64,000 bases of DNA from a virus (IMGVR_UViG_3300047160_036266:256001-320000), one strand, 5' to 3'; positions 3,022 through 63,578 are shown, counted from the stretch's first letter. Translations and numbers: made by a program. Notes: a model not told the origin generated them from the letters alone.

Positions 3022-4368
3022 ATGCACGGATTCAGGAATTGGATGGAAGCAGAGACGAGCGCCCTCGAAGACGAGATCATGTCCGCCGTCAATGATGAGG
3101 ATGTATCCCAGCCCTACTTCAACGCCCTGCTCCACCAGTGGGTGAAGCAAAGCAACCCCACACTGTCCGGGGTCAAGCTTCAGCGGGGCTACGCGCCGCC
3201 CTATAACACCACCTTCCTGAGCGGTCAGTACAGCCCCTCGCTGGCCGATATTTCCGGGCACCGCATCGAGGAATATGGATTCTCCGGCGTCGGCCTGATC
3301 GTCCAGCCTTTTACCGCCGATTATTTGCGCAGTGACACCCTCCAGAACTTCGACGGTATCGCCATTGACAATGGCATGTTCACCGAAGCAGGCCAGCGGA
3401 ATTTCACCTGGGATAAGTACGAGAAGATGGTGAAGGTCGCTCTGGCGCAAGAGAAGAGGGAGATACTACGCAAGTTCCATTTCTTCACCGTCCCGGACCA
3501 GCCGTTTGATTGGGCCAGGACTATGCAGAAGTTCCAGGCCAGTCGGCCTTATGTGGAACGCCTACGCAAGTACGGCGCACCCGTCGCCATCTGCATACAG
3601 AACGGAGCAACGGAGAAGACCGTGCCGTGGGACGACGTGGATGTAATCTTTATTGGCGGCGATGATAAGTGGAAGGTAGGGTCAGAGGCTCAGGCAATCG
3701 TGCAGGAGGCGCAAAAGAGAAAGAAGACCGTTCACATGGGCCGGGTCAATAACCTTAAACGTATGAACGTCGCCTCCGGTTGGGGTGTGGAGACAGCGGA
3801 CGGTACTTATATCATGCACGAGTTGGCCAAGTCCCTCCATGACATTGAAAGGAAGAACCCCATGAGGCCAGGCGAGTCGCCGCAGGATTATGCCAAGCGT
3901 CTCAAACGTATTCTTCATGGAGAGCATCAGCCCACCGACATGGACTCCAAGGAACGTCACCAGACGGAACCGGAGATCGTCGGCAACTTCGTGAACTATG
4001 TGCTGGACAACCAACAACGCAGTCATCTGGAACGCCGCTATGCCGAGATTGCCTCTCTGGTCAAGCAGATGGGCAAACGGCCTCTGAACAAGCGGACGTT
4101 GTGGGAATACGACCGCTTTATGCCCCAGGTGCCGGGGATGGAACATGATGAAGACGTGGTGGAGTTCGACCCGGAGGGGAACGTGCGCGTGGACGCCGCA
4201 GGTCGTCCGATAAGGAATGCCGAACTGTTCAGTGGACTAATGCTGCGCGTACCCTATCGGGAGATGCCGGAAGGTATCCCTTCCGACCCGAAGAACTACA
4301 AAGTCTACACCAATTACATCAATCGTTATATTGCGCGAATGCGCGACCTGGGCGTGATGCCTAAGTAA
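3022..4368 (+). CDS. TGT-fold (DpdA-like) base-exchange transglycosylase with N- and C-terminal extensions
   Basis: TGT-barrel motif order DNGMF, VPD, IQNG, FIGG, VHMGRVN, TADGT. Start reassigned to the ATG at 3022 (MHGFRNWMEAE); the track ORF starts at 2986. Confidence 0.7.
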   Translation: MHGFRNWMEAETSALEDEIMSAVNDEDVSQPYFNALLHQWVKQSNPTLSGVKLQRGYAPPYNTTFLSGQYSPSLADISGHRIEEYGFSGVGLIVQPFTADYLRSDTLQNFDGIAIDNGMFTEAGQRNFTWDKYEKMVKVALAQEKREILRKFHFFTVPDQPFDWARTMQKFQASRPYVERLRKYGAPVAICIQNGATEKTVPWDDVDVIFIGGDDKWKVGSEAQAIVQEAQKRKKTVHMGRVNNLKRMNVASGWGVETADGTYIMHELAKSLHDIERKNPMRPGESPQDYAKRLKRILHGEHQPTDMDSKERHQTEPEIVGNFVNYVLDNQQRSHLERRYAEIASLVKQMGKRPLNKRTLWEYDRFMPQVPGMEHDEDVVEFDPEGNVRVDAAGRPIRNAELFSGLMLRVPYREMPEGIPSDPKNYKVYTNYINRYIARMRDLGVMPK

Positions 4369-5551
4369 CGTCTTGCAATCCCAAGAGCTTGAGATATTTT
4401 CGGTACTTATTCAGGGCCTTGCCTCGTAGACCCCGGTAAAGACCCTGCTGCTGGTAGTGCCTGAAGGTGTCAATCCAGCGTTGGCGATATGCCTGGGCCT
4501 CCGGCGTGTCCTGGCCCCGGAACTGCTGGTCGAAGGGTAAGTCTCGGTAGCGATAAGTACCGCCCCGTTTCACCAGCGGATCGCCCTCTGGGGCGTAAGG
4601 CGCACTCACATTCAGATCGGAGGGCGTGAATAGCTCCCGGCGTTGCCCGGTGTAGGGATTGATATTGCCGTGAGGATCGAGGCTCATAAACACATCCTTC
4701 TTGACGGCGGGCCGTTTCTCCGATGCCTTGCGGTCGATGCTTAGGTTTATGATGTCACGGCCCTCTGGATCGGTATAGACAGGCATCTTGAGTTTTCCCC
4801 GCTCCAAGGGCTTGTATCGCCACATGGGATCGACACCTACCATAGCCTGGTGTCTCCAAACGTCTAGGTCTTTGAGCTTGCGTTTCTTCATGATTGCTTG
4901 CCACAATTCGGCCCAGAAGTCATAGTCCTTACGGCTGGGAGTCTCATTAGGCACCACCCGCTGAAGCTCCGCTAACGACAGGCCCTTGGTGAACCGGGCG
5001 GGCAATGTCTCGCCCTTCATGTCCATGTCTTGGAGGATTCGCTTCATGGCCCGGAGGATGTGACGGTCAAGAACCGCAGGCTGTCCTTTGTCCTGGTTCA
5101 AGTATATTTTGATGAAGTTGACGATTTTGCTGCTGACGTTAGGAATGCTATGCAGGTATTCTTCGATCTTATCCGGGGGCCAGGATTTCATGTCATCCAG
5201 ATCGACCTTGGAAACGTCAACGAAACTGCGGGCCAAACGATTGAACGTACCCAGGCCGGCACGGGCTATATTCCTGACGAGGGTGCCTTTGTCAATCATG
5301 GTCCGAATGCGATGGAATGGGGTGCCGCCTGCACCACCCATGCTCGGCTCCTCAAAGGAAAGAAAGTGCATGAGGCCACGAGCCTGTTGGTGGGAGGGCT
5401 TACCGGCGGACAGAATGGTGAAGAGGATGTAGAACTCGCCTTTGGCCTGGTCTTTGTAGTCGAGGCCAATCTGTGGGTCGTCCAGGTAATACGGATCGAC
5501 TACCTCCGGCCCAATGATTTCGTCCAGGCGCAGCCACTCTTTGAAGTTCAC
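4361..5551 (-). CDS. HhH-GPD-family DNA glycosylase-like protein (OGG/N-glycosylase type) with C-terminal extension
   Basis: HhH-like LHSIPNVSSKIVNFI with Lys, then AVLDRHILR (Asp motif typical of archaeal-type 8-oxoG glycosylases). GTG start. Confidence 0.65.
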   Translation of the reverse strand: MNFKEWLRLDEIIGPEVVDPYYLDDPQIGLDYKDQAKGEFYILFTILSAGKPSHQQARGLMHFLSFEEPSMGGAGGTPFHRIRTMIDKGTLVRNIARAGLGTFNRLARSFVDVSKVDLDDMKSWPPDKIEEYLHSIPNVSSKIVNFIKIYLNQDKGQPAVLDRHILRAMKRILQDMDMKGETLPARFTKGLSLAELQRVVPNETPSRKDYDFWAELWQAIMKKRKLKDLDVWRHQAMVGVDPMWRYKPLERGKLKMPVYTDPEGRDIINLSIDRKASEKRPAVKKDVFMSLDPHGNINPYTGQRRELFTPSDLNVSAPYAPEGDPLVKRGGTYRYRDLPFDQQFRGQDTPEAQAYRQRWIDTFRHYQQQGLYRGLRGKALNKYRKYLKLLGLQDVT

Positions 5552-5579
5552 GACCTATTTAGGGTTACTCTGATATATT

Positions 5580-6686: not shown

Positions 6687-6999
6687 CGTCTCCTTCGGTT
6701 TGTTGTTTCTTGCGGCGTTCAGCAATCTCGTCTATCTTTCTTTTTTCTTCGGCAATCATGCTGTCGATGTAGTGTAAGGTTTCCTTCACGCCCATGCCAG
6801 GTACGGCCCCAACGCCCCAATGCTGTTGGTACTGTTCCTGCTCAGCCTGTTGCCTCTTTTCCCGCTTCTTCTCCACCTGCTCCACCTTGGTCAAGGCGGC
6901 GTTTAGGTGATACCGGGCTTCCGACAGGGTAAAATCCTGTGGGCACTCCCGGATAGCTTGTTGTAGCAAAGTCCTTAGTCGTTGGGTATTATTCTTCAT
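6661..6999 (-). CDS. Hypothetical helical protein
   Basis: 112-aa ORF overlapping both neighbours in an operon-like arrangement. Confidence 0.7.
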   Translation of the reverse strand: MKNNTQRLRTLLQQAIRECPQDFTLSEARYHLNAALTKVEQVEKKREKRQQAEQEQYQQHWGVGAVPGMGVKETLHYIDSMIAEEKRKIDEIAERRKKQQTEGDDDVSAILG

Positions 7000-7949
7000 C
7001 CCGCACCCTCTCCAATTAACTCAATGTATTTAATGGGTATCTCGTTGTTTCCTGCCGGCTCATATTCGCCCGGTTGCACCTGCACCAGATGCCTGGTGTC
7101 CACACGCACCTTCCAGGTATCATGAATGGATGGGAGCGGGGCACGTTCCGTCATCAGGCGGGGATAAATCTCGGCATTCCCCAGGACCGATAGTTGGCGG
7201 CGAGCGTCAGCGTATACGTCTCGCTCCTCGCAGGTAGCGTTGAAATATAGCGTCATCACCTTCCTGGCCGACACGGATCGGGGTTGTTGAATCTCCTTAA
7301 TCAACCCGAAAAAGTCCCTTTGCAGGCCATCGTCAACATAAAACGCCTCGCTGTTTTCATCGAGGGTCCATACTTCCAAACCGCCGGGGGCCAGCCCGCA
7401 GCCAAATTTGCCGCTGGCCGGCGGTCGGCTTACTTCCACGACCGCTTTCTCCACCGGATAGACCCATTCCCTTCCCTGGGGTTCTTTTGGCACGATCCCA
7501 ATAAGGGACTTAAAGCCCGGCAAGAATAGGCTGGCGGTTTCCAGAAGCTTTCCCAGCTTGTGCATATTCTTGCTGGTCTTGTGCATCAACAACCGGAGGG
7601 TTTCCTGCTCGTTGAGTTGGGGCTTTGCGCCGTAGAGACAGTATGCCTTGAACTGGAAGAGGGCTTCTGGCATCGGCCCTTGGTTCCATTCTTGGTAGGC
7701 GCTATATGCTGCCTGGATTTTGCGGGGGTTCATGCTGGACAGTGCCACCATGAACGGATTGGTCTGCGGATAGTGCTGATTCAACAAACACTGCTCAATG
7801 GCCACCTTCTCGGCCTCACTGCTTTCGATATAGTCCTCACGCCAGACCACATTTTTCAGGCGCTCGGTCAATGCTGCCTCATAGGCTTCAAGGCTAATGG
7901 CAATTTTGTTGGAACACTTGAAGTCAACATACTGCTGGAATTGGCTCAT
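6996..7949 (-). CDS. Hypothetical protein (317 aa)
   Basis: Start reassigned to the ATG at 7949 (MSQFQQYVDF), 1 nt after the terminase stop. The 5' part of the track ORF lies in another frame of the terminase. Confidence 0.75.
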   Translation of the reverse strand: MSQFQQYVDFKCSNKIAISLEAYEAALTERLKNVVWREDYIESSEAEKVAIEQCLLNQHYPQTNPFMVALSSMNPRKIQAAYSAYQEWNQGPMPEALFQFKAYCLYGAKPQLNEQETLRLLMHKTSKNMHKLGKLLETASLFLPGFKSLIGIVPKEPQGREWVYPVEKAVVEVSRPPASGKFGCGLAPGGLEVWTLDENSEAFYVDDGLQRDFFGLIKEIQQPRSVSARKVMTLYFNATCEERDVYADARRQLSVLGNAEIYPRLMTERAPLPSIHDTWKVRVDTRHLVQVQPGEYEPAGNNEIPIKYIELIGEGAG

Positions 7950-7950
7950 G

Positions 7951-9759
7951 TTACCACCCAAATTCTTTGAGTAATTTGTCGTACTTCCTTGAGTAGTTGA
8001 ACATGACGCCCGGCAAGATGTCATCCTTGTCCGGGGCCAGGAAATCGGTCGGTTCCTCGATAAAGTCCTGCGGTGCCCCTTCCTGCAACTCGCGCTTGAT
8101 CTCCTCGTATATTTCCGTCTTGAAGGTCGCCGTGATCTCCTTGGGAACCTCGGCACCCATCGGGATGTCACGCAGCAGGCCGTCGCGTACATAAAGCGCC
8201 ATGCACATGGCCATGATGGCGTCGTCGTGATGACCCTTCAGGGCCTCGGCCCGCTTGGTCTGGGGGTTGAAAATGAATGTTTGCAGTTCCCGGACGAAAC
8301 GGTTACTATTGATGCGCACCGTACTGTTGATGAGCCTGTGCTGCAATCGCTCCAGAAAGATTGGGCGGTTGGTCCGGTTGACCGTGATGCCCGGTTTCTC
8401 CTGTTTGCCCTTGGCCTCATAATGGATATTTTCGTAGAATAGGTCGTGCTGTAACTGACTGATGACAGCACCGCCAGGGGCCATATTCTCCACGATGATG
8501 GTCGCCGTGTTGTAGTACAACCCGACTTCGTTGAGGATTTGGGTGAAGATGTGCGGCGGCACGCTGTTGCTATAAAACTCGGCCACCTGTTCCAAGGTCG
8601 CCGTGTCAAGAACCTGGAAGCAAGAATTATCGCCCTTCTCGCCCATGCCTTCAGCCACGTCCACGCCGATCAGGTATTCGTGGCCGTCAATGGGTTCCTT
8701 CCATACCCACATGGCCCCTTTGTCAAATTCCAGGTCGTCGTTGACCAGTTCAAGATATTTGTCTATATTGGCCCACTTGGGGAACAGCTTGCGGATCGGA
8801 TAGTTGTCCCTGGTAGCTTTATCGAGAGCGTCGATGATCTTGGTGGGGAAGTAGTTGTCACCGGAGCCAAGGAACTCGCGCATGACCTCCTGCAACCAAC
8901 CGGCCTCGCCAAGCTGGGCCTTGTTCTTCTTGACCCACTCCGGGTCGTCGTATTGCGGGTTGTCCCAATAGTCCAACTCGATGACATGCCAGATTTTGTT
9001 CCGGTTCTCTTTGGTGTCGGTGAAAGTCTGGTGATACCAGTTGCCGTAACCGTTGACGGTGGAAACCACGGCGCACTGACCGCCGGTGCTAAGTACCGGC
9101 CACATAGCCTTCCAGTGGGTTTCCATGTCCGGGATGAATGCCGCCTCGTCAATGATGAGGAAGGTAACGGATTTACCACGAGCGGCTTCTGGGGAATAGA
9201 ACTTCATCGAGCCGCCGGTATCGGTGAACATCTTCAGATGGTCGTTCCACTTGCCATCGGTCTTGGGCTTCATCCAGATGGGTAAGTGTTCGATGGCCCG
9301 GTCCACGATCATGCCGATGTCTGTGGCTTCACGGTCGGTCTTGGACAGCAACATGACCTGGGTATCTAGCTTGAACATGCACCGCCACATGCCCCATAAC
9401 AGGGTGAGAGTGGTCAAACCACCCTGGCGGAACTTGCTGATGATATTGAAGTCGTGGCTTTCGTAGTCCTTGATAACCGTCCGCTGGTACTTGTACAAAA
9501 TGAAGGGGATCAAGCCCTGGACGGGGTGGAGAATCTTGAGGTACTTGTTGCAGAAATACGGGAAGCTCATCGAACACTTGATGATTTCCTTCTGCTGGCG
9601 GTGGGCGTCATACGCCTCGATCTGCTCCTCGGTTTCGTCGGGGTCGATGTCCAGTTCGTAGCGGTCGAAGTCATAATACTTCGAGTTATATTCTCCCTCG
9701 TAGTATTCCCTGGGGGTCTTATATTTCTTCCGCCACTTTGAAAAATTCTTGAGGTCCAT
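7951..9759 (-). CDS. terL: Terminase large subunit (T4 gp17-like)
   Basis: ILHPVQGLIPFILYKYQ; Walker A KFRQGGLTT; Walker B FLIIDEAAFI; nuclease YLIGVDVAEG and HDDAIMA. Start at the ATG at 9759 behind SD AAAGGA. Confidence 0.95.
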   Translation of the reverse strand: MDLKNFSKWRKKYKTPREYYEGEYNSKYYDFDRYELDIDPDETEEQIEAYDAHRQQKEIIKCSMSFPYFCNKYLKILHPVQGLIPFILYKYQRTVIKDYESHDFNIISKFRQGGLTTLTLLWGMWRCMFKLDTQVMLLSKTDREATDIGMIVDRAIEHLPIWMKPKTDGKWNDHLKMFTDTGGSMKFYSPEAARGKSVTFLIIDEAAFIPDMETHWKAMWPVLSTGGQCAVVSTVNGYGNWYHQTFTDTKENRNKIWHVIELDYWDNPQYDDPEWVKKNKAQLGEAGWLQEVMREFLGSGDNYFPTKIIDALDKATRDNYPIRKLFPKWANIDKYLELVNDDLEFDKGAMWVWKEPIDGHEYLIGVDVAEGMGEKGDNSCFQVLDTATLEQVAEFYSNSVPPHIFTQILNEVGLYYNTATIIVENMAPGGAVISQLQHDLFYENIHYEAKGKQEKPGITVNRTNRPIFLERLQHRLINSTVRINSNRFVRELQTFIFNPQTKRAEALKGHHDDAIMAMCMALYVRDGLLRDIPMGAEVPKEITATFKTEIYEEIKRELQEGAPQDFIEEPTDFLAPDKDDILPGVMFNYSRKYDKLLKEFGW

Positions 9760-15288: not shown

Positions 15289-15479
15289 CGCTGGCGCATT
15301 TTCTTTCTCATGAAAGGATGGGCGGGCGTCGGAGGAAGCTCCTTGGGGTCGTTGGTATAGACCGGCATGGCCCCGCCGCCCTTTTTCACGTCCCGTTCGA
15401 TCCGAGAACTGGTAGGCTCCAGGCTCGGTTCGATGCCGTAATTGCCAGCTATTTCCAGCCATTGAAGAAAGGTCTTCAT
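15273..15479 (-). CDS. Small protein with a CTS-like N-terminus (MKTFLQWLE)
   Basis: Start reassigned to the ATG at 15479; 68 aa. Confidence 0.65.
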   Translation of the reverse strand: MKTFLQWLEIAGNYGIEPSLEPTSSRIERDVKKGGGAMPVYTNDPKELPPTPAHPFMRKKMRQRQSAS

Positions 15480-36047: not shown

Positions 36048-36048
36048 A

Positions 36049-37617: not shown

Positions 37618-37625
37618 GGTCCTCC

Positions 37626-42052: not shown

Positions 42053-42059
42053 GTCTTCC

Positions 42060-47882: not shown

Positions 47883-47889
47883 ATTCCTC

Positions 47890-48756: not shown

Positions 48757-48824
48757 AGTATCCTTGTGTTTGGGGAAGAGATGGGGGTGCTGGCTCAGGT
48801 ATATATGAGTGTCAGCGGCAAATG

Positions 48825-54800: not shown

Positions 54801-57800
54801 CCAAAGCGCAGTCCAGCCCAGGGCACCGAAGCCGGCGAGCAATGCACCCGCCACGATAATGCCCAGAGCAACTTTGCCCATTGCTTCAAAGCTGTAATTG
54901 ACCAGATCGACCGCTTCCTTAGCCTGGGCCACAGTCCATAAGCCACGAAGGAACTCAATGAAGAATATGATGGCGGCGGCTAAGGCTGCGATAGGCGGCG
55001 TCATAAGAGCCAGGGCAAAGATGCCCAACCAGGCGTAACCGACAATCCAGAATACCCCCAAACCCAGGGAGCCAAAGGCCACCAACAACCCGCCGCCTAT
55101 CAATATGCCGAGTGCCGTTATTCCCATTGCCTCGAAGGTGTAATAGGTTAGATCAGCGGCCTCCTTGGCTTGGGCAACGGTCCACAGTCCTTCTAATACC
55201 TTGATGAATGCGATAAGGGCGGCGGCGAGAGCGAGGACGGGTATGCCAATGGCGATAAGTGCGCCAATGCCAAGCCAGGCATAGCCAATGATAATGGGTG
55301 CAGCCCAGACCAGCGCACCAAGGCCAATCATTATTCCGGCACCTACGGCTATTCCCGCCGCAACCAACCCAAACGCCGTGAAACTTGCCTGAACCAGTTT
55401 CACGGCCTCCTCGGCTTGCTGGACGGTCCACAAACCCTCCAGAGCCTTAATGAAGAGGATGATAGCAGCGGCGAGAGCCAGGACAGGAATGCCAATGGCG
55501 ATAAATGCCCCAATGCCCATGTAGGCATAGCCAATGATAATGGGCGCTGTATAGGCGAGCGCACCGAGTCCGATCAACGCCGCACCGGCCACCACAATAC
55601 CTATTGCAACCAAGCCCATTGCCGAAAAACTAGCTTCCACCAGTTTGGCAGCTTGCTCGGCCTCTTTGACCGTCCACAAAGCCTCCAGGGCCTTAATGAA
55701 CAGAACCATTGCGGCAAAGAGGGCGAGAACGGGGATCGTCAGGAGGGCCAGGGCAATGATGCCGAGATAGGCGGCGGCAATAAGTTTCCAGGCGAATTTG
55801 GCCAGCACCCCAAGTCCCATCATCGCCGCCGCAGCAGCAGTAAAGCCCAGGGCCACTATGCCAATGGCTGTGAAGGTAGCAGCCACCAGCTTGGCAGCAT
55901 ATTTGGCCTCTTCGAGCGTCCACATGCCTTCAATCATCTTGATGAACAAGATCATGGCGGCGAGAAGGATGGTCGTAGGTATCATGACGAGGCCGATGGC
56001 AATGGCGCTCTTTGTCATTTGCCAGGCCAGCTTCGCTGCCTTGCCAATAGTTGGCATGTACTTCATGTACTTGTCTGCGCCGTATATTGCCGCACCAATT
56101 GAACCCGCCGCAATTAACGTAACTGTGATAGTGAAGGCTGCTTTCAATGCTTCGGACGGGGTGATTGGGGCTTTGGCAATCGCCTTTACCAGCAGGTACA
56201 TCGCTGCCATGACTGCCAGTATCGGCAAAGCCATCATTGCCAAGCCCTGGGCTGCCTGGAACAATTCCTGCTGGAGTTCCTTAACCTTCGCCTTATCCTT
56301 CAGGATTTTGAACTCTGGTTGCTTCATGCCCTTATCGGCAAGCCACAGCGCACCACCGACAACACCCGCAGCAAATACGGTCGTGGCGATAGTAGTTGCC
56401 ACCTTGAGGGCATCGCCGCCGGTGATCGGAGATTTGAGGATCACCTTTACCAGCCCATACATAGCCGCCATTACTGCCAATATGGGGAGCGAGAGTATAC
56501 CCAGGCTGGCAGCCACCCTCCACATATTGCCGGCGAACCTCTTAGCCAGCCGGACGTTCTTCAGCATCTTGAACTCTGGCTGCTTCATGCCCAGGTCGGC
56601 AACCCAAAGCGCACCACCGACAATTCCGGCTGCCAGGAAGGTCACGGCAATCGTGGTTGCCGCCTTCATTGCTTCAATCGGACTGATGGGTGCCTTGGCG
56701 ACGAGTTTTACGAGGAGGTACATGGCTGCCATGATGGCCAATATGGGCAACGACAAGATGCCCAGGCTGGCGGTTACTCTCCACATATTGCCAGCAAACC
56801 GCTGGGCCAGCCGGACGTTCTTGAGAAGCTTGAACTCCTTTTGCTTCATTGCCCAATCGGCACCCCATAGTGCAGCACCGATTACGCCGGCAGCCAGGAA
56901 GGTTGTGGCAATGGTGAAGGCCGCTTTCAATGCTTCCGTGGGACTGATGGGGGCTAGGGCGATTAACTTAACCAAGGCGTACATGGCTGTCATGACGGCC
57001 AATATGGGCAGCGAGAGCAGACCCAGGCTTGCAGTGACCCGCCACATATTCATGGCGAACCGCTGGGCCAGCTTGATGTTCTTGAGAATCTTGAACTCTT
57101 TTTGCTTCATTGCCCAATCAGCGCCCCACAGTGCAGCGCCAATTACACCCGCAGCCCCTATGGTTGTGGCGATGGTGAACGCCGCCTTCATTGCCTCGCT
57201 GGGGTTAATGGGCGCTCTGGCAATTGCCTTAACCAAGATGTACATGGCGAGCATGATGGCGAGGATGGGGGTAGACAGCAGCGCCAGTGACCCAGCCACC
57301 CTGAACATTTGCCCGACCATCTGGACGGTGCCCTTGATGTCCAGAAGCGTGCTGAATTCAGGCTGGGCCATGCCCTTTCTGGCACCAAAGATAGCGAGGC
57401 CGATAATACCGGCGGCGGCTATTGTGGTGGCAATGGTGAAGGCTGCCTTCATGGCCTCGGCGGGACTAATCGGTGCCCTGGCAGCAGCTTTAACGAGCAG
57501 GACCATTGCCGCCATCAGGGCGATAATAGGAGCGGCCATCAGGGCGAATGCCCCAGCGGCCTTGAAAAGCTTGCCGGCGACTTGCGCCGCCTCCTTCATG
57601 TCAGGCAGTTCGTTGAGGACTTTCTTGATGCCTTCGAGTTTGCCAGTGAGGGTTTTATCAACCCCACCTGCACTGGTGGCTTTGAGCGCACCTGCACCCG
57701 GCCCGGCGACTTCGGCTTGCTTGAGGAGGCCGGCTTCCTTCCTCTGGAGGATGGATTCTCGCTTGAGTTGACCGGCCACCCCCTTCGGACCCATATTCGT

Positions 57801-60800
57801 GACCATCTTCTCTTCTCTCTTGAGCAGTCCCTCCTGCCTCTTGAGAAGTTCCTGATGGACCCTTGGATCGCCGGTCTGGGCTGCGGCCTGAATCCGTTCC
57901 CCCCGCAATCTGGCGGCTATTTCCTTGCCCTTCTCTTTTTGCTGTGCTGGAGTTAAGCCCTTTAGCTCCTCTTTCATCTTCTCTTTTTGGGCTTTAGCAC
58001 CAGCGGTATACTCAGCCTGTTGGGTCTTGCTCATGCCCAGGTCGCGTGGCCCTACCGCCTTGTCGCTCATCCGGCAGACGCAGTGGCGTATCTCGGCCAG
58101 AATGCGAATAAGCTGCTGGAGACTCTTCTGGAGAATACTGTGAGTCGTATCATCGCTTGTGGGTGTAAGCGCAGGCGCTTCTGGACCCTTCAGCCCCAAT
58201 AAACCTCCTGCCGTGGTAGTGGTTGGAGCGCCTGGCAGCTTAGGGCCGGTAGGAGCGGGTCCGCCCGGAGTTTGGGAAGGAACTTTGGCAGCAACCTTTT
58301 TTTCTAGTTCATCCTCAAAATCACCGAATATTCTTGGCCCAAGGTAGGGAATCTTCTTGAGAACGGGGAAGATCGTGCCCAAGCCCTGTTTGTTAAGGGT
58401 TATGAGGTTCAGGATACCCTTGCCGATAGTCGTGGCAACCAAAGTGGCAATAAGGCCGGTTGTGCCAACCAAAGCCAGTAGGTGATGGATGGCCTTCTGG
58501 CTGAAGTTCCTGATGCTGTCGTTGACTTCCATCATCGTCTGGTTCAACTTGCTCATGGGGTCAAGTTGAGCCTTCTGCGCCGTCGCCAATTCCTGCTCGC
58601 CCTTGGAAAGCTGGGCACCCAACTCACGGAACTTGGTGGGGTCTTTAAGAGCTTCCTCGATGTCCTTGGTGCTGATCTTCAGTTCTTGTTTTCCGGCCTT
58701 CAACAACCCGGCGTTTATAGTCTTGAGGCTTTCCTCAATAGCCGTCTTGGCAGCCCCCGCACTGGTGGTCCACGAGTGGCCCATCGCCTGGAGGTCGCCC
58801 TCGAAGTCCTTGCGCCGCTCGCTGAACTTGGCGAGGGCTTGATCCATGTTTTGAGCGCCCTTGGTGGCTTCATCCAGTGCCGTGAGCATGGACAGGGACG
58901 CCGACATGCGCAGGGCACGCTCCTTCTCCATGAGCGTGGCCTTTTCTTCCAGCGTCAGGTTCTTCTCGCGCTCCTTGTTGATGTCGGCCAAGCGATCCGC
59001 CAATCCTTTGCCCGATTCCTTCATGGCGATTATTGACTGGCGGAATTCCCCTAGCTCCATGCCGTAGGCAGCCTTCAGGGTGACATTGACCTTGAACTTG
59101 GCGGCATCACTCATCTGGTCGATGGCTTCCAGACTTTCGACCCCGAATCCCTTGAGGATTTCTTCCATGCCCCTGGCCATGTCCTTCACACCCTCCTTGG
59201 TGCGAGTGACGGTGCCTTCCAGAAGGTCTTGAACTCGTCCGACCTTGCTGGCGGCAACGAAGAGGACATTCCTCGTTTCGCTTGAAGCCTTTAACAGCAA
59301 CTCGGCGCTGCTGCTCATGGCCCGTATCAGCGGGTCCATTTGCTGCTGGACGCCCAACTTCTGGGCGTTGGCAGCAATTTCGAGGACGTTCTTGGCGCTT
59401 GCCGCTGTAAGTTGAGCGGCATTGCGGAGCATGGTGATATATTGCTGGCCGGTGCCAAGGGCGGTCTTCAAGGCGTCCCCGGTTAGCCCTGTATTGCGGG
59501 CCACTTCCCGCATCCCTCGACCCATCTCGGCAATCTGCATCTCGCTCATGCGGCCTTCAAGGGTCCATTTGTGGAAGGCATCCCCCAAATCGCCGGCTGC
59601 CATACCGAGTTGTCTTTCGGTGTTTAGCTGGGCCACGGTTACGGCATGAGCCACCTTTAAGTCTCTAATGCCGCCCTTAACCGTTTTGAGATAAGCTTGC
59701 TGGAACTTGGTGCGATCTACGCCAGTCTGCTTCACCGTGGTCCCAATATTTTCCCACTGTCTTTGCAGCAGCTTGCTTTCGCCTGTGACCCCAGCAACCT
59801 CGTAGGCGGCAGCCCGAACGTCCTTGATGAATAAAACCTCATCCTTTATCACGCCGCCGAAAAGGGTGTCCAATGCACTCTGGCCCTTTTCGGTGAAGCC
59901 CATTATTGTGTTCTCTATCGAAAACAGCATTCGCTTCATGTCGTTATAAAGCGACATGCGCGCCCACAGGAGCTTGTTATAGGATCGCTGGGTGCGCAGT
60001 GACTCCCGCCCGATTTCCTCTTCCTCTTCCAGCACATGCAAAATCTTCTCTTGGCCCTCCAACTGCTTATTGGTGGCATCTGCGGTGGCCTTGGCACCAC
60101 CGCCGGTGGCCGCACCACCGCCGACAACAGCAAGACCGCCTCCGGCGGGGGCAACTGCGAGTTTGGCCACGGCTCCGCTTATCTTGTCACAACAACTGTC
60201 AATGGCGGCTTTAATGGCGTTGAGGACTTTGATGGCCGCTTCGTCTATAACGGGCAGAGGCCCACCACCCCCGCCACCACCGGCAGGCACGACATGACCG
60301 CCCCCGCCCGCACCACCGCCGCCTCCTACACGAATCGTGTCAGGCATTCCGGCATGTCCCGCTGGCAGGTGTTGAGCGGCCTCGGCAGGCTTGCCGGCTG
60401 CCGCCGCAGCACCCCCGATTGGCACTTTGTTTACTAGATCATCGAGAGTCTGCCGCAGTTCTTGGGTTTCGGTTTTCAGTTGCGATATAATAGCTGTTTG
60501 CTCCTGGTCCCGTTTATCGAACGCCGCCAGGGCCTTATGAAGTTGATCGTCTTTGGTATGTACTGTACCCTTATGCAAAGCAGCTTGGGTGAGGGAACCC
60601 AGATCATCTTGCATACCCTCGATCCCCTTGGTGGCATCGTCCAGGGTTGCCGGCTGTTGCTTGCCCCCGCCCAGGTTGGCAATGTCCTTACTAATCGTTG
60701 ATAGCAAGGTTGTGGATTCGGCATCCTTGACTATAAGGCCCTTGCCGTTTATGGCAACCTTGTGTATCTCCTTGATTTGCAGGGCCATTGGCTTGATGTG

Positions 60801-61289
60801 ACTGGTTGCCAACTTCTCGATGCTTACCAGCTTGCTGGCCATGTTGACCACATTATCGAGGATGGACTGGACCTTGGACTCAAGACCCTGACTCACTTTC
60901 TCGACCGGCGACATCGCCGCACGCTCGGCTTTGGCGGCGGGCGGTGCATTGGCGACCGCAGCACTGGCGTTGGCGTACTGCTTGCTCTCGGCAGCTTCCT
61001 TAGCAAAGCGAGGATTGATTTGCTCGATAAGCCGGGCGATATTTTGCAAGACGGGTGTATTCTTTTCGGTAGCTGCCTTGTTAGCAGCGATATTCTCGTT
61101 GATCTTATTGAGGGTCTGTTGCATGGCGGCAAACGAACGCGAGAGGTCTTCCTTCCTCTCCTCGCCCCGGACGGTAGGTGCGCCGACCTTGCCCGTCATA
61201 AGGGTCTTTAGCAATTCTTTCATCTCGCTGGTGTTCGTAACGAGTGGCTGAATTACTCGACCAAAGGCATCTTCAAAAGCTGCTGCCAT
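48825..61289 (-). CDS. Giant tape measure protein (4154 aa)
   Basis: Ala/Lys-rich helical protein with long internal repeats and hydrophobic stretches, immediately upstream of the tube initiator, gp53, hub and spike genes. Confidence 0.85.
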   Translation of the reverse strand: MAAAFEDAFGRVIQPLVTNTSEMKELLKTLMTGKVGAPTVRGEERKEDLSRSFAAMQQTLNKINENIAANKAATEKNTPVLQNIARLIEQINPRFAKEAAESKQYANASAAVANAPPAAKAERAAMSPVEKVSQGLESKVQSILDNVVNMASKLVSIEKLATSHIKPMALQIKEIHKVAINGKGLIVKDAESTTLLSTISKDIANLGGGKQQPATLDDATKGIEGMQDDLGSLTQAALHKGTVHTKDDQLHKALAAFDKRDQEQTAIISQLKTETQELRQTLDDLVNKVPIGGAAAAAGKPAEAAQHLPAGHAGMPDTIRVGGGGGAGGGGHVVPAGGGGGGGPLPVIDEAAIKVLNAIKAAIDSCCDKISGAVAKLAVAPAGGGLAVVGGGAATGGGAKATADATNKQLEGQEKILHVLEEEEEIGRESLRTQRSYNKLLWARMSLYNDMKRMLFSIENTIMGFTEKGQSALDTLFGGVIKDEVLFIKDVRAAAYEVAGVTGESKLLQRQWENIGTTVKQTGVDRTKFQQAYLKTVKGGIRDLKVAHAVTVAQLNTERQLGMAAGDLGDAFHKWTLEGRMSEMQIAEMGRGMREVARNTGLTGDALKTALGTGQQYITMLRNAAQLTAASAKNVLEIAANAQKLGVQQQMDPLIRAMSSSAELLLKASSETRNVLFVAASKVGRVQDLLEGTVTRTKEGVKDMARGMEEILKGFGVESLEAIDQMSDAAKFKVNVTLKAAYGMELGEFRQSIIAMKESGKGLADRLADINKEREKNLTLEEKATLMEKERALRMSASLSMLTALDEATKGAQNMDQALAKFSERRKDFEGDLQAMGHSWTTSAGAAKTAIEESLKTINAGLLKAGKQELKISTKDIEEALKDPTKFRELGAQLSKGEQELATAQKAQLDPMSKLNQTMMEVNDSIRNFSQKAIHHLLALVGTTGLIATLVATTIGKGILNLITLNKQGLGTIFPVLKKIPYLGPRIFGDFEDELEKKVAAKVPSQTPGGPAPTGPKLPGAPTTTTAGGLLGLKGPEAPALTPTSDDTTHSILQKSLQQLIRILAEIRHCVCRMSDKAVGPRDLGMSKTQQAEYTAGAKAQKEKMKEELKGLTPAQQKEKGKEIAARLRGERIQAAAQTGDPRVHQELLKRQEGLLKREEKMVTNMGPKGVAGQLKRESILQRKEAGLLKQAEVAGPGAGALKATSAGGVDKTLTGKLEGIKKVLNELPDMKEAAQVAGKLFKAAGAFALMAAPIIALMAAMVLLVKAAARAPISPAEAMKAAFTIATTIAAAGIIGLAIFGARKGMAQPEFSTLLDIKGTVQMVGQMFRVAGSLALLSTPILAIMLAMYILVKAIARAPINPSEAMKAAFTIATTIGAAGVIGAALWGADWAMKQKEFKILKNIKLAQRFAMNMWRVTASLGLLSLPILAVMTAMYALVKLIALAPISPTEALKAAFTIATTFLAAGVIGAALWGADWAMKQKEFKLLKNVRLAQRFAGNMWRVTASLGILSLPILAIMAAMYLLVKLVAKAPISPIEAMKAATTIAVTFLAAGIVGGALWVADLGMKQPEFKMLKNVRLAKRFAGNMWRVAASLGILSLPILAVMAAMYGLVKVILKSPITGGDALKVATTIATTVFAAGVVGGALWLADKGMKQPEFKILKDKAKVKELQQELFQAAQGLAMMALPILAVMAAMYLLVKAIAKAPITPSEALKAAFTITVTLIAAGSIGAAIYGADKYMKYMPTIGKAAKLAWQMTKSAIAIGLVMIPTTILLAAMILFIKMIEGMWTLEEAKYAAKLVAATFTAIGIVALGFTAAAAAMMGLGVLAKFAWKLIAAAYLGIIALALLTIPVLALFAAMVLFIKALEALWTVKEAEQAAKLVEASFSAMGLVAIGIVVAGAALIGLGALAYTAPIIIGYAYMGIGAFIAIGIPVLALAAAIILFIKALEGLWTVQQAEEAVKLVQASFTAFGLVAAGIAVGAGIMIGLGALVWAAPIIIGYAWLGIGALIAIGIPVLALAAALIAFIKVLEGLWTVAQAKEAADLTYYTFEAMGITALGILIGGGLLVAFGSLGLGVFWIVGYAWLGIFALALMTPPIAALAAAIIFFIEFLRGLWTVAQAKEAVDLVNYSFEAMGKVALGIIVAGALLAGFGALGWTALWIVKLAWIGIIALALMSPPIIVLGAAILGFIKVLEGLWGTAAKAQDMAKMVEAVFDAMGTVAWNIIKYGALLAGFGLLGWWAVFIAAMMWAGIVAFGIMAQPVQFFIRALLDLGRAIIQGTSAEEAKQIADSFKTLIEAGGVVLKGVEEIKGILIKMGGPSFWGWITGKSAVTEAYETAGMMRKGIIVFGIVKEPVKDFVKQVIDFGEAITANIDAEDAKEIADNVTALMKTMGVVLKAVQESKETLIKMAGRSVWSWITGKSAEKQAEETAETMRTGITVFTTFSKPVKDFAKKVVEFGQEITTSLDADDAKELSDNVQALMKTMGITLQAVQDSKTILMKMGGGSFWAWITGKGAVKEAQQTADLMRTGISVFEEISRPIPDFISKLVDFGTMVTSTIGEDEAKKLGDNLQTVMKAGGAVLDSVNKAKETLVKLGGGSFWSWITGKGAIKEAQETADMMTKGAEVFDIIAAPVVPFISSLMGLGAQITGSMPEEQAKKLGEALETTLKAGGAVFDAVAKTRQTLEELGKTQFKGGFFFWVTKSAKEAATDTANMMEKGAEAFQIIAAPVVPFIASLVGMGRGITGGMSPEEAKKLGEAIGSTLKSGTAVFKAIEKAQRLLSRQPSSTVAKIIADWMWDAVKAFEIMSSPVVYLLRAVLAAAKSIGPAKEAQDAAETMKAIIPVLKAIPKIIHQVVTRLIPIVEKGTHGVSAKDLLAKADEFDKFFSSLATFLGRGIIDPIFYVIGDPRDVKIAADVMKSLVPLIAYIPPVVRMVARNLIPMIEEGTKANEIASKINTSTTKEFNKFFMTLSKFLGQGIIDPIFKVIGDPRDVKIAAEVMKALVPLIASIPPVVWMTVYGLLPMVDAGKYAGQMAKKIDEETTKKFNTFFSVLANFLGKGIIDPIFKVIGDPRDVKIAAESMKAMVPLIASIPPVVWMTVYGLLPMVDAGTYAGKVAANLDAKTTKAFSTFFWALARFLGKGIIDPIFYVIGDPRDVKIASESMQALVPLIKSIPPVIYGIQYGLVPLMQAGDDLAGNVLTQLENSTDNYQDFFKGVFNFIGHGIVDPIIYDIGDPRDLSIAAMSLAGAVRLINLLPKFIVDLANSIKWFNDPPREPNVKTMGDAVKKFGEWFGGISRALGDGIFIPIKTTFPKPQEVQEAQAQLQGMVDLVKKLPKFIEDLAKEMDTFSKAPWWRMQGVIAAQVTIFSEFFRTIAVALGKGILEPIRKYFPESAFFVEVNGRLDGVRNMLPKVGAMIDALSNEMKRLGGTIGVAAQMLNTAWDLFAFGTFFRNIAWNLKAGMIDPVRQWFPPAKVFQELIARLEMVPKFLPAVRKVCEDITNEIKDYGQSFFGIWWRSVKMNWKFRDFAAYFTDIARGISEGMIQPVQVWFPPSSELADLLKRLEIVQKLIPEVRKTIDKMMEEVNKFGREFPTWEDQSKKQMDAFRFAIFFRSLALSISIGIIDPIWRYFPHSRKLEEVVKEIDAVSRILPKVNEVVDAVTTQMNKLNTGPDWDIDLADSTNKFANFFKGAAEAIRTGIIDPIKENFADTEELEGVIDSLEVLNDVLGEMDTVIATLSGTLAGLADVDVDVSGLTKINFGQISDVATTLSKMPPLDAGQLANYMAGGNATASFVNPAALGPGGAGAAPGGGVTPAAAPPKAAGGMAGMDKAMGAALVRANAGPRAPGAAPGGPDEIQQTQDVGVEEALRELISTMVYTQKTQNRFSEQTITTSSQQSTQANVTGVDRAVTGSAKITSKAVADSTTNLTGRITGISQTVGDSVRAATGPLTTSFNQWRDRQTQQQQQQQQAQQQNQQAQAQANQGMTDLANQGLQRGSIYVHDVETMGAVNRLIQTLGGATGVRLEAATEQPATQVAVAQSMTDLHTAMQQRYATDQAPAAATGPLAEMAELTKLTAQTLAVEQEQKELLAKLVEYFKPKPAPVTGMGGEPRRTQNRTIPGRPPRFPDVPMGQAVQSANLGVLPNNFANS

Positions 61290-61297
61290 TACATCCT

Positions 61298-61864
61298 TTA
61301 TGTAGTACCCGGCGTACCAGTTGTGCCAAGCGGTTGCTCCTCAGTTGACTGAGCCGGCGGATTAACCGTCCGGTTAATCTGGTCACGCACGGCCCGGCGT
61401 ATCGTGTCTACTTGAGTGGGGTCGAGGGTTCGTACTGTTTGCAGTACCTTGAGGAGAAATGCACAATCCAACTTCTTTATCTGGCGTATGCCCAGACGTT
61501 TATATTGTCGGAACGCTCCTACTATATATGCGTCTCCCTTGATGTTATAATACGAAAACCTTGGATTATCACAATTCGGCTGCAACAGGCGCAGAATATA
61601 AGGGAATGTCAAATAGTGCAAATTCACCCCACGAATATAATCCCGCCACACGTCGGTTATAATCACCAGCGGCGTTGGGTCGTGGCCGGGCTTGAAGTAG
61701 AGGTAGCTGAAGGTGACGAGGCTGCCCTTGTTGATGGTCTGGAAGCTCGGCCCGAACTGGTTGGCCGGCAGCCTGGCGTAAGGAGGCACCTGGCCCGTCT
61801 GTTGGACTTGCCCTAAAGCGGTGAACAGATTTCCAGCAAGCTGGTTACTCGGTAGTGGTGGCAC
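61298..61864 (-). CDS. DNA end-protector protein (T4 gp2-like)
   Basis: F.Y...D..PLV......GVNLHYL motif; GTG start with TATATA 4 nt upstream. Confidence 0.6.
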   Translation of the reverse strand: MPPLPSNQLAGNLFTALGQVQQTGQVPPYARLPANQFGPSFQTINKGSLVTFSYLYFKPGHDPTPLVIITDVWRDYIRGVNLHYLTFPYILRLLQPNCDNPRFSYYNIKGDAYIVGAFRQYKRLGIRQIKKLDCAFLLKVLQTVRTLDPTQVDTIRRAVRDQINRTVNPPAQSTEEQPLGTTGTPGTT

Positions 61865-62261: not shown

Positions 62262-63370
62262 AAGGCGGGATCGCCCACCCGCCCCAGCCGGGTATGTTCG
62301 GGCAGGACGCTCCGTACCTTGGCAGAAAGTTTCTTCATGTGCCACTCGCGCTGGGGCAAGTGGCCATGTTTCTTTATGCGCTCCTTGATGAGCCGCACGA
62401 ATTCATGCACTTCGGCCCCTTCGGGCCAGCCAGCAACCCGTGCCACTTCCTTCCAGTTGCCCTTCCCATACGCCTCCACGAAGTCCACAAAAGCTGGATG
62501 AGCCTGCGGCCTGGGTGAGTCCAGCTTATATTCCATCCACTCCCCGAATTTCTTCGGCTGCTGCTGCCGCTGGTTAATCATTTTGAGGAAATACTCCATC
62601 AGGGCGTTAAAGCGTTGTCCCGCCGCCTGCAACTGCCCCTGGTAGGGAGAAACATCCATGCCCCATACCTTTGACTGGCCCTGCTCCTCGAAACCCTTGA
62701 AGTAGCGTTCAATCTTGTCGCTTAACGGAGCCAGGGCCATCATCTTGTTCACGTCGTAAGGCTGGCCGGGATAGTAGCGAGCGTACAGGGCGGCATATTG
62801 CTTGGCGTGCGCCCGCAACTCCCCAGGATCGGTGAAATAGTCGATCTTGCCTTTGTCGTACTCCGGGCTGCCCCTGGGATGGCTTCCACTTAAATATGGA
62901 TTGGCGTGTTGCTGGTTGCCTGGCGATACCTTCCCCGATGAAAGGTGCGTCATTTCGTGATGCAGTTGGAAATACAGGCGGGAGATCATGGCCTGAAGGG
63001 GCAGGTCGTTATATTCCTTGGCCTGGGCAATGGTGTTGACGTTCAGGTAGATGTTTAGGATGCTTGTGCCGAAATCGGCACCCGTGTCCTTTTGGGTGGG
63101 CTTAATCCTAATCACCAATTGATCGCCAATGGGCGACTGGTGGCCCTTGACGGTCGCCGGCACACGGATTTCTACGCCCCGCTCCGGCACGGCCTCGCTG
63201 CCGAAGTTCCGCATGACGGCGAGGCCCTTGGCGTTATCAACGATATACTCGGAAATCCGCTTCTGCTTGTTGTTCTGGAAATACTGGTGCAGGGACTTAT
63301 TGATGATCCCGAAGGCCGCTTCTGCGACAGCATCCTCGTATTGTTCGTGGGGGTGGCTAAGGTCATCCAT
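62258..63370 (-). CDS. Zincin-like metallopeptidase-domain protein
   Basis: HExxH (LHHEMTH) plus a downstream YFTDPGELRAHA Glu ligand motif. Confidence 0.6.
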   Translation of the reverse strand: MDDLSHPHEQYEDAVAEAAFGIINKSLHQYFQNNKQKRISEYIVDNAKGLAVMRNFGSEAVPERGVEIRVPATVKGHQSPIGDQLVIRIKPTQKDTGADFGTSILNIYLNVNTIAQAKEYNDLPLQAMISRLYFQLHHEMTHLSSGKVSPGNQQHANPYLSGSHPRGSPEYDKGKIDYFTDPGELRAHAKQYAALYARYYPGQPYDVNKMMALAPLSDKIERYFKGFEEQGQSKVWGMDVSPYQGQLQAAGQRFNALMEYFLKMINQRQQQPKKFGEWMEYKLDSPRPQAHPAFVDFVEAYGKGNWKEVARVAGWPEGAEVHEFVRLIKERIKKHGHLPQREWHMKKLSAKVRSVLPEHTRLGRVGDPAF

Positions 63371-63371
63371 A

Positions 63372-63578
63372 TTAGTCAGCGTAACGCATGTCGTCGTAAT
63401 ACTGGCGTGCTGTGCGGGCGTCTACTTCGCCGGCACCCTTGCACAACTGGCATTCCTCGCCGTCCACTTCACCCTCACCCCGGCAGGCGGGACAGTTGGT
63501 GTCGTCATCATAAGGTGAAGCCAGCTTCCAGGCGTCATAGCCCGGCAGGTTCTCGATGTACTGCTGAAACGTCTTCAT
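63372..63578 (-). CDS. Small protein with a CTS-like N-terminus and a DnaJ-type zinc finger
   Basis: MKTFQQYIE start; CPACRGEG and CQLCKGAG (CxxCxGxG x2); SD AGGGAG. Confidence 0.8.
   Translation of the reverse strand: MKTFQQYIENLPGYDAWKLASPYDDDTNCPACRGEGEVDGEECQLCKGAGEVDARTARQYYDDMRYAD

Follow-up and report, generated by a model that had tools for sequence, protein, structure and literature searches.

In bacteriophage T4, the internal proteins IPI, IPII and IPIII carry a capsid-targeting sequence (CTS), described by Mullaney and Black in 1996 (reviewed in PMC9026906, PMC3012670). IPII and IPIII begin with MKTYQEFIAE and IPI with MKTFKEF. Mutational work on the T4 tag has linked residues 4 and 7 (Tyr4 and Phe7) to targeting and residues 8 and 10 to processing (PMC9026906). 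Here we describe a similar tag in a 64,000-nucleotide stretch of viral DNA (the window), which is part of a 343-kb record, itself a fragment of an uncultured soil megaphage of ~500 kb. The complete genome of a relative, LR756511 (595 kb), was used for comparison.

Like the T4 CTS, the tag is a peptide of 9–13 residues at the extreme N-terminus, with MKT as its prefix; residues 4 and 7 are aromatic, residue 8 is aliphatic, and Glu follows. As in T4, the carriers are unrelated, fast-evolving accessory proteins in which the tag alone is conserved (PMC3012670), and gp20-, gp21-, gp22- and gp23-type head genes occur in the same phage. However, the record holds ~36 carriers per 343 kb, whereas T4 has three, and large enzymes are among them. 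Trp is favoured at position 7, and Glu is usually residue 9, or else an extra L-x-E unit (WLRLDE) precedes it. Unlike in T4, a promoter-like box abuts the ATG in half of the tagged genes, and cleavage and packaging are predicted.

The second half of the tags and the capsid protein start of the megaphage (M..N..FLNE-A) also share a hydrophobic-Leu-x-Glu register with the ten-residue propeptide of the T4 vertex protein gp24 (MAKINELLRE/S) and the gp21 site of gp23 (SFLTE/A). Those T4 peptides, however, are shell-protein propeptides and not portable tags, and the cleavage site of the megaphage capsid protein is a predicted one. In the phiKZ-like giants SPN3US and 201phi2-1, dozens of different proteins are packed into the head and cut after Glu by an S77-related protease; the long propeptides of their ejection and inner-body proteins are believed to direct these to the prohead (PMC5694885). 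The present phage is likewise a giant, for which Glu-cleaved head cargo is proposed. Whereas the phiKZ-like propeptides measure 79–161 residues (only that of gp45 has ~20), have no short motif in common and show A/S/G-x-E as their cleavage site, the megaphage tags follow a short T4-style consensus.

A shared peptide at the start of unrelated genes

The original prediction had noted a similar motif opening several unrelated ORFs of the window. All seven N-termini that it quoted are encoded there, one on the plus strand (3022) and six on the minus strand (5551, 6686, 7949, 15479, 21408 and 63578). The phenomenon is larger than first noted. A strict pattern, M-x(1-2)-F-x-x-[WFY]-[LIMV] at the gene start, matches 24 of the 444 called genes of the whole 343-kb record, against ~1.2 expected from a background core frequency of 0.0013 per residue; a looser form of the tag is present in ~36. 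The core starts at residue 3–4 in 24 genes and at residue 5–7 in ~12 more. A six-frame scan of the record placed 23 of 39 motif matches exactly on called starts. Strict-pattern matches in a PrkA kinase, in two membrane helices and at one internal Met were judged false, and the primase-like protein (17366) and the ORF at 7949 are weak cases.

A matrix trained only on LR756511 gave 22 N-terminal matches of at least 10 bits in the record, where 0.27 are expected. LR756511 itself has 27 strict matches against 3.0 expected, and 40 IMG/VR records contain MKTFx[EQ]WLE, the pattern used for that search. The tail and baseplate module served as a negative control: none of its 21 genes is tagged, whereas 10 of the window's 38 other genes are, a count that includes one internal-Met false positive. 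Chance, composition or gene calling could have produced such a motif, and the false matches named above speak for this. With a 20- to 80-fold N-terminal enrichment under the cross-trained matrix, repeated in LR756511 and in the 40 IMG/VR records, this explanation was tested and rejected, and we regard it as practically eliminated.

At internal positions, 12 matches reached 10 bits against a shuffled expectation of 7.0 ± 2.4, a mild excess. Four internal copies had been proposed at the outset. Those in the ORFs at 18407, 26619 and 62258 score well (18.1, 15.4 and 12.6 bits) and are among the best internal matches of the genome, whereas FQQWHE (21977) has no score with the tag matrix. A strictly N-terminal signal leaves these strong internal copies unaccounted for, which counts against a CTS reading.

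The logo set comprised 55 tags, in which the Phe, [WFY] and [LIMV] positions are fixed by the pattern. Phe at position 4 is thus invariant by construction; position 7 is W29/F14/Y12 where only W/F/Y were permitted, and the equivalent of T4 residue 8 is L32/V12/I7/M4 where only these four were permitted. MKT is the commonest prefix (11/55). Glu follows the aliphatic residue directly in 20 of the 55 tags and one residue later in 10, often in a register one residue shorter than in the T4 tag. Within five residues, Glu is found in 75–81% of tags but in only 31–33% of other N-termini (p = 5e-6 and 6e-7). The positions conserved here (aromatic residues at 4 and 7, an aliphatic one at 8 and Glu at 9–10) are the determinants of the T4 tag.

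Stripped of their tags, the carriers give no BLASTP matches with each other and are thus unrelated proteins. The Phe, Leu and Glu codons of the tags vary freely, the tag is kept across genomes of 56% and 42% GC, and GC among carriers spans 30 to 56%. Since synonymous codons vary, the carriers are otherwise dissimilar and close homologues occur with and without the tag, the sequence comparisons indicate that it acts at the protein level.

Carriers of the tag

The features of the window are collected in Table 1. The original prediction had named three carriers a DpdA-like enzyme, a glycosylase and a 2H phosphoesterase; only the last label has a profile match behind it.

Table 1. Tagged genes, promoter-like boxes and neighbouring genes. 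Positions are those of the window, except for the S77 protease.
Feature	Position	Strand	Details
Portal (gp20), T4-type, with intein	363..2945	-	PF07230 8.6e-76, PF14890 3.9e-13; left border of tagged cluster
Promoter-like box ATATATA	3010..3016	+	5 nt before ATG 3022; CTAtATA-N4-5-ATG class
Predicted TIM-barrel protein, 448 aa	3022..4368	+	Tag MHGFRNWMEAE at 3022-3054
396-aa protein (the 'glycosylase')	4361..5551	-	GTG start; tag (M/V)NFKEWLRLDE at 5519-5551
Promoter-like box CTAAATA	5556..5562	-	4 nt before start at 5551
Putative Acb1-like 2H phosphoesterase, 184 aa	6132..6686	-	Tag MTFRQFLANE (6657-6686) fused directly before ancestral Met
317-aa protein	6996..7949	-	Weaker tag MSQFQQYVD, Asp instead of Glu; 9.4 bits
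Large terminase, T4-type	7951..9759	-	PF03237 4.4e-12, PF17289; right border of tagged cluster 3022-7949
68-aa protein	15273..15479	-	Tag MKTFLQWLE; CTATATA box 15488-15494
Primase-like protein, 346 aa, CHC2 zinc finger and Toprim	17366..18406	+	Start MAVDFQRFVDWAE
724-aa protein	19234..21408	-	Tag MRDFATYLKKTNE; Shine-Dalgarno site upstream
Volactin, actin-like	22584-23591		
Tail and baseplate module, 21 genes	27749..61864	-	Baseplate wedge phrog_219 1.6e-31
68-aa protein	63372..63578	-	Tag MKTFQQYIE; Shine-Dalgarno site upstream
S77 protease	Record 251141-251824		

For the 448-aa protein, named DpdA-like, the AF2 model (pLDDT 87, with only residues 1–10, the tag, below 50) confidently predicts a TIM barrel, the family of which is uncertain. 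The protein matched no Pfam family at E <= 0.01, including DpdA (PF23859) and TGT, and no PDB sequence; the sole sequence-derived lead to DpdA/TGT is an Atlas match at rank 92 with a score of 0.88. Superimposing the model with TGT chains yields Z values of 13.0–13.6 over ~255 residues with an rmsd of 5–6, and class II aldolases match equally well (Z 13.9, rmsd 3.5). The gene callers' start is ATG 3043 and not ATG 3022. The latter is supported because 10 of 14 homologues (45–69% identity) carry the same tag (MHGFANWLES, MNGFQNWFES and similar) and because, as with other tagged genes, a TATATA box precedes it, here at a distance of 5 nt.

The 396-aa protein has no Pfam or PDB match, and its sole PHROG match, phrog_11575, is without annotated function. 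An Atlas (language-model) match of 0.93 to Ogg-HhH/HhH-GPD viral clusters offers a weak lead towards an HhH-GPD glycosylase; the AF2 model is poor (pLDDT 49). Its homologues begin with VKFKEWLRLDE and MEIRFKDWLE.

The assignment of the 184-aa protein as an Acb1-like 2H phosphoesterase is supported by matches to PF13563 (1.3e-11, 45.2 bits) and PF23474 (Acb1; 3e-9, 37.2 bits, cut-off 27) and by both predicted H-x-T/S motifs, H62-T-T-V and H138-V-T-I. The protein shares these motifs, and passes the Acb1 cut-off, with T4 Acb1 (gene 57B), an anti-CBASS 2H phosphodiesterase. However, it is only 29% identical to the 57B product over 52 residues, and its tag is an addition absent from most homologues. 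To our knowledge, T4 Acb1 is not a head protein. Tag-free homologues were looked for and found, and this family provides the example: the nearest homologues (66–72% identity) begin with MHDVVYSYSS and have no tag, 38 homologues begin at the domain, and the LR756511 ortholog is also tag-free. About 21 members have a tag of 10–14 residues, the Glu of which often abuts the ancestral Met (...E/M...). Carriers that are not paralogous, Acb1-like homologues with and without the tag, and its disorder in the AF2 model together indicate that the tag is portable and dispensable for the fold.

Neither the 317-aa nor the 724-aa protein has a Pfam or PHROG match. The primase-like protein's ortholog in LR756511 begins with MVDFDSFVDWCE; the start MAVDFQRFVDWAE is doubtful as a tag and may be the native N-terminus of the protein. 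Outside the window, the tag opens the ~300-residue N-terminal extension of a 472-aa protein (record position 238140), and in LR756511 it is joined directly to a 170-aa homologue of that protein's C-terminal domain. Among further carriers, a UvrD-like helicase, a radical SAM protein and a CCA-adding/poly(A)-polymerase-like enzyme stand beside numerous small proteins without annotated function. None of these is an obvious candidate for the proposed anti-defence or DNA-editing cargo.

A promoter-like box upstream of tagged genes

The CTAtATA-N4-5-ATG box is found in 30 of the 444 genes of the record. Its link to the tag is a new observation of the present analysis: 22 of 42 tagged genes have the box, compared with 27 of 402 untagged genes (p = 8e-13). 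In half of the tagged genes, the ATG lies 4–5 nt behind a CTAtATA box, with no Shine-Dalgarno site; another 20 are preceded by a Shine-Dalgarno leader instead of the box. In sequence, the box resembles the T4 late promoter, and CTAtATA-type boxes also stand upstream of terminase, portal and baseplate genes at usual leader distances. BLASTP found no homologues of T4 gp55, gp45 or gp44 in the record or in complete LR756511, so that a late-promoter reading draws on resemblance and neighbourhood only.

This arrangement raises the idea that the motif is an expression element, its first codons being shaped by leaderless-mRNA translation or as initially transcribed sequence. Half of the tagged genes, placed 4–5 nt behind a box and lacking a Shine-Dalgarno site, would suit it, but synonymous codons vary, 27 genes with a box lack the motif and the leaders of 20 tagged genes are of the ordinary kind. 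Moreover, conservation concerns the character of the side chains, aromatic (W/F/Y) or aliphatic (L/I/V/M), and not the bases, and we consider this explanation very improbable.

Somewhat less remote, yet still improbable, is a shared start that serves mainly as a recombination handle. Box, ATG and tag would then mark the 5' border of a cassette for gene swapping, and the peptide would be nearly functionless; such swapping was reportedly proposed earlier for the T-even internal-protein locus. The tight association of tag and box agrees with this, as does the finding that tagged genes are mostly accessory and quick to turn over (11/42 have a homologue in LR756511 versus 178/402 untagged genes, p = 0.03). 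However, with free codons and such variable carrier GC, the DNA of the tag is not conserved and offers no long identical stretch for recombination, and the 20 tagged genes with Shine-Dalgarno leaders have no box. The amino-acid conservation instead argues for selection on the peptide.

Head genes and a proposed cargo system

A T4-type S77 prohead protease (PF03420, 90 bits; phrog_207, 2e-47) is encoded a short way to the left of the window, and the record also encodes a gp23-type major capsid protein (phrog_138, 2e-82) and a T4-type scaffold, portal and terminase. The capsid proteins of the clade all start with M..N..FLNEA, in which FLNE-A is conserved and shares its register with the T4 propeptides MAKINELLRE/S and ...SFLTE/A. 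Four tagged genes lie between portal and terminase, and one 7.3-kb IMG/VR fragment has four beside its capsid gene. Of the 40 IMG/VR records with the tag, most of them small fragments, 18 encode S77 despite a summed completeness of only ~11.8, which indicates that tags cluster near head genes. In a 194-kb T4-type phage that also has S77, just ~two such tags occur; the expansion is thus clade-specific, a point against the CTS reading.

The likeness to the T4 CTS that had been proposed is supported by these head genes, by residues conserved at the targeting and putative processing positions, and by the homologues that lack the tag. Because the conserved positions match the T4 determinants and T4-type head genes are present, our best reading of the motif, with moderate confidence, is that of a T4-type capsid-targeting peptide, a portable address at the N-terminus. 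By analogy with T4, we infer docking, cleavage, packaging, injection and timing. The first 9–13 residues would form a short peptide, aromatic at 4 and 7 and aliphatic at 8, that docks the carrier onto the scaffolding core during prohead building. The S77 protease would then cut after the following Glu and free the mature carrier inside the head, from which it would leave together with the DNA when the next cell is infected. Single units behind a CTAtATA box make up half of the tagged genes, and an ATG 4–5 nt behind it would give near-leaderless, probably late, transcripts.

Some observations weigh against the CTS reading. Glu is mostly at position 9 and not 10, which puts Trp, not Leu/Ile, three residues before the cut, and we know of no such site shown for gp21-type proteases. 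Head cargo amounting to ~8% of all genes is very many, and for carriers such as an 887-aa helicase, the 724-aa protein and replication-type enzymes a use for packaging is not obvious.

Alternatively, the peptide may be a portable docking or sorting tag with a target other than the prohead, be it a phage hub protein, a chaperone, a replication/repair factory or a cytoskeletal element such as Volactin, which is encoded in the window, or it may be a timed degradation signal. Modularity and N-terminal restriction would suit any address tag, strong internal copies exist, and DNA- or RNA-acting proteins (UvrD-like helicase, primase-like, CCA-adding-like and TIM-barrel proteins) are among the carriers. 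However, such a tag leaves unexplained the position-by-position match to T4 and the MKT prefix, as well as the trailing Glu, the E/M junctions, the clustering with head genes and the FLNE-A start of the capsid protein, and we judge it unlikely.

Under the CTS reading, the phage head probably carries a large and changeable complement of enzymes for injection. More tentatively, and at somewhat less than even odds in our view, this clade of soil megaphages (~500–600 kb) may have made the T4 tag into a general cargo system, in which a cassette of late-promoter-like box, leaderless ATG and ten-residue, Glu-ending tag can be placed before any gene. At least 30 ready-made enzymes would then be packed and injected, and would act before phage gene expression. 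If this is true, an anti-CBASS Acb1-like nuclease would be among the injected cargo, along with a tRNA CCA-adding-like enzyme and enzymes for nucleic-acid modification and repair.

An N-terminal tag on unrelated proteins

The N-terminal peptides quoted in the original prediction were all found in the sequence. They follow the pattern M-x(1-2)-F-x-x-[WFY]-[LIMV], usually continued by a Glu, which in its strict form opens 24 of the 444 genes that a simple caller (coding score plus ribosome site) places on the whole record, against about 1.2 expected from an overall core frequency of 0.0013 per residue. The relative LR756511 (LR756511.1), a 595-kb uncultured phage with 42% GC, has 27 strict matches against 3.0 expected. 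The predicted excess of the motif at N-termini over internal positions is borne out by these counts and by a cross-trained matrix: trained on the relative's tags alone, the matrix picks out 22 N-termini of the record at 10 bits or more, where internal positions predict 0.27, and the opposite test yields 24 where 0.94 are predicted. Of the 39 matches in all six frames, 23 fall exactly on called starts, and several further ones are better starts than those called. Taken together, these results confirm that the tag holds genome-wide and clade-wide.

Allowing one to five residues ahead of the Phe yields 42 candidates. About 36 of them remain once two membrane helices, a PrkA kinase with an N-terminus that is part of the PrkA domain, and three doubtful cases are set aside. 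The doubtful ones are a conserved gene with the match downstream of its called start, a case that begins at an internal TTG, and one that no Glu follows. Reading the tags that are offset by 4–6 residues as TTG or GTG starts nearer the Phe was rejected, the codons there being CTT, CTC, CTG and TTA. Internal copies of the tag core show a modest excess (12 versus 7.0 ± 2.4), and the strong ones, at 12.6–18.1 bits, read KKFKEWLV, NEFKKWME, KKFGEWME and KKFKEWLVE (see table).

As had been claimed, the tagged proteins are unrelated: once the first 15 residues are removed, no mutual BLASTP match is left, and a paralogous family was rejected on this ground. The tag codons vary (Phe TTC/TTT 14/10, five Leu codons, both Glu codons), which rules out a nucleotide-level signal; the signal works at the level of the protein rather than the DNA. 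Among homologues in the Acb1-like family, 38 begin right at the conserved domain and about 21 have a tag of 10–14 residues ahead of it. The join often lies between Glu and Met, as in MTFRQFLANE/MHDVV here and MMTFRQYLTE/MKNGK elsewhere. The closest homologues of the Acb1-like protein (66–72% identity) and its ortholog in the relative are without the tag. A second N-terminal extension, ...(H/Y)RPF(T/M)DK(K/R)G..., occurs in homologues P0064, P0069, P0072, P0074, P0075, P0081 and P0093, the LR756511 ortholog included, and may be another add-on peptide.

A 472-aa protein at record position 238140 opens its N-terminal extension of about 300 residues with the tag, and in the relative a 170-aa protein homologous to the C-terminal domain has the tag attached directly. 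The confident AlphaFold2 model of the 448-aa protein (pLDDT 87) falls below a pLDDT of 50 at residues 1–10 only. We consider it near certain that the tag is a real, portable N-terminal element acting at the protein level.

Tagged genes, head genes and promoter-like boxes

The window covers bases 256001-320000 of an IMG/VR virus record that comprises 343,421 bp with 56% GC; a CheckV completeness of 69% puts the full genome at about 500 kb. Its DNA was found in soil metagenomes that about 20 studies produced; a 20-kb megablast query matched nothing in the phage collection. The major capsid protein shares 82% identity with its LR756511.1 counterpart, with T4-like cyanophages as more distant kin, and the genes for head and packaging belong to the T4 type (see table). 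In record coordinates the capsid gene lies at 248780-250216, the scaffold at 250242-251141 and the S77 protease at 251141-251824.

Features of the window and record
Feature	Location	Strand	Evidence or remark
S77 (gp21) prohead protease			PF03420 90 bits; phrog_207 2e-47
Scaffold-sized gene	between protease and capsid genes
gp23-type capsid protein			phrog_138 2e-82
gp20 portal with intein	window 363-2945	-	PF07230 8.6e-76; intein splicing domain PF14890 3.9e-13, residues ~154-333
'DpdA-like' protein, 448 aa	window 3022-4368		tagged
'Glycosylase', 396 aa	window 4361-5551		tagged
Acb1-like protein	window 6132-6686		tagged
gp17-type terminase	window 7951-9759
Tail and baseplate module	window 27.7-61.9 kb
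4154-aa ORF	window 48825-61289	-	heads tail module; no Pfam/PHROG match
'Volactin', actin-like	window 22584-23591	-	full-length match, PF25216 6.7e-66
PD-(D/E)XK/Cas4-like nuclease	window 16472-17236	-	PF12705 4e-30; among accessory genes
M36 metallopeptidase (weak)	window 12711-14303	+	1.6e-5; among accessory genes
Strong internal copy	window 18407-18877		residue 75
Strong internal copy	window 26619-26915		residue 14
Strong internal copy	window 62258-63370		residue 275
Strong internal copy	record 243091-243474		residue 43
Example box	window 3010-3016
Example box	window 5556-5562
Example box	window 15488-15494
Example box	window 61869-61875

The stretch from portal to terminase (window 3022-7949) is occupied by four tagged genes. 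A further one belongs to the head module, where a 645-aa gene separates it from the protease; the 21 genes of the tail module carry no tag. This 645-aa gene, located upstream of the protease, was considered as the portal and rejected in favour of the gp20-type gene in the window.

Scanning IMG/VR for DNA encoding MKTFx[EQ]WLE returned 42 stretches in 40 records, and all 45 matches open an ORF (23 to 339 codons). The S77 protease is present in 18 of these 40 records, despite most being fragments 2–69% complete with a summed completeness of about 11.8, which suggests that tags tend toward head genes. One 7.3-kb fragment (L040) encodes the portal end, protease, scaffold and capsid protein, followed by four tagged genes (100-2074). 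An HNH-like gene stands between the capsid gene and these four, one of which has a ParB-like 'DGNHR' motif, while the 168-aa one looks ADP-ribosyltransferase- or Tpt1-like by eye. High-completeness records without S77, from small phages of 32–65 kb, have a different small family, MKTF[DG]EWFEEN, whose matches we rejected as tags since they look like a single small homologous family. Only about two tags occur in a complete T4-type phage of 194 kb that encodes S77, a count that points to an expansion specific to the megaphage clade. Tagged genes are accessory, with a homologue in the relative in 26% of cases versus 44% of other genes (p = 0.03).

A box TA-N-A-[TA]-A (consensus CTAtATA) ends 4–5 nt before the start codon of 30 of 444 genes here and 54 of 1064 in LR756511, and genes with a box at this distance are without a Shine-Dalgarno site. 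It accompanies 22 of 42 tagged genes versus 27 of 402 others (p = 8e-13), as well as 23 of the 45 IMG/VR matches. In sequence this box is similar to the T4 late promoter TATAAATA. Since T4 late promoters start transcription about 6 nt past the box, mRNAs of the boxed genes would be leaderless or nearly so, and transcripts of those genes probably start without a leader, from a T4-late-like promoter. The box also occurs upstream of the terminase, portal and baseplate genes, there at ordinary distances. CTACATA lies 9 nt upstream of the 4154-aa ORF, and the 188-aa gene preceding it has its own CTATATA box 4 nt before the start.

BLASTP of late-transcription and clamp proteins against the record and the complete relative matched T4 gp46 and gp47 only; gp55, gp45, gp44, gp62 and regA gave no match in a search too insensitive to mean absence. 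Since no gp55 homologue turned up in this way, late expression of the boxed genes is presumed only. The RNA runs sought for 5' ends were soil DNA runs and two small-share "metatranscriptomic" runs (probably DNA), none usable as RNA. Ordinary leaders on 20 tagged genes, together with 27 boxed genes that lack a tag, show that the tag is no by-product of leaderless expression. Its coupling to a box abutting the start codon suggests that near-leaderless late genes form a class of their own in T4-related phages.

Comparison with the T4 capsid targeting sequence

[quoted passage not shown] T4 IPII and IPIII start MKTYQEFIAE and IPI starts MKTFKEF; in IPIII amber-suppressor work, targeting depends mainly on residues 4 and 7 and processing on residues 8 and 10 (PMC9026906, review). 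In the logo of 55 tags, position 4 is Phe (dictated by the collecting pattern), position 7 is W/F/Y and position 8 is L/V/I/M, with Glu next; MKT is the commonest prefix here. A Glu follows within five residues of the core in 75–81% of tags versus 31–33% of other N-termini. Unlike in T4, however, this Glu is mostly at position 9 (W-L-E) or after a second L-x-E unit (WLRLDE). The gp21 protease of T4 cleaves gp23 after SFLTE65 and gp24 after MAKINELLRE (propeptide lengths, PMC5694885), and the clade's capsid proteins all start M..N..FLNEA, with Phe7-Leu8-x-Glu10 in the same register. T4 Acb1 (gene 57B; L034 9953-10411), which adjoins ipI, starts MMEFKDFS, a loose likeness to the tag core that may be coincidence.

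Judged from sequence, the chances are somewhat better than even that the tag serves in capsid targeting and cleavage as in T4, on a scale that is unusually large. The chief alternative is that it docks proteins at some other destination. In the literature examined, the short tag is described from T4 and phages close to it, and long propeptides from phiKZ-like phages; we found no description of the motif in huge phages.

Candidate cargo proteins and implications

The 2H phosphoesterase assigned to window 6132-6686 is indeed an Acb1-like member of that group. The 'DpdA-like' protein of 448 aa is a TIM barrel of uncertain family: its TGT matches tie with aldolases, and there is no Pfam match. Its homologues are all metagenomic, and most are tagged. 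For the 396-aa 'glycosylase' there is an HhH-GPD lead only, its AlphaFold2 model, built from 3 sequences, being too poor for use. PDB sequence searches with both proteins were empty. Other tagged proteins elsewhere in the record include a PolyA_pol/CCA-adding-like enzyme, a UvrD-like helicase, a radical SAM protein and a DUF3293 protein, and many have no assigned function.

Should the tag function as its T4 counterpart does, sequence alone would suffice to read which proteins uncultured giant phages inject. Each gene opening with the tag would then be a candidate first-strike effector and a direct pointer to new anti-defence proteins, here mostly without assigned function, and part of the megaphages' use of extra coding capacity would be explained. 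The tag with its Glu-Met junction would constitute a naturally occurring module for protein delivery, apparently one of great tolerance, which could carry the T4 packaging toolbox over to much larger capsids.
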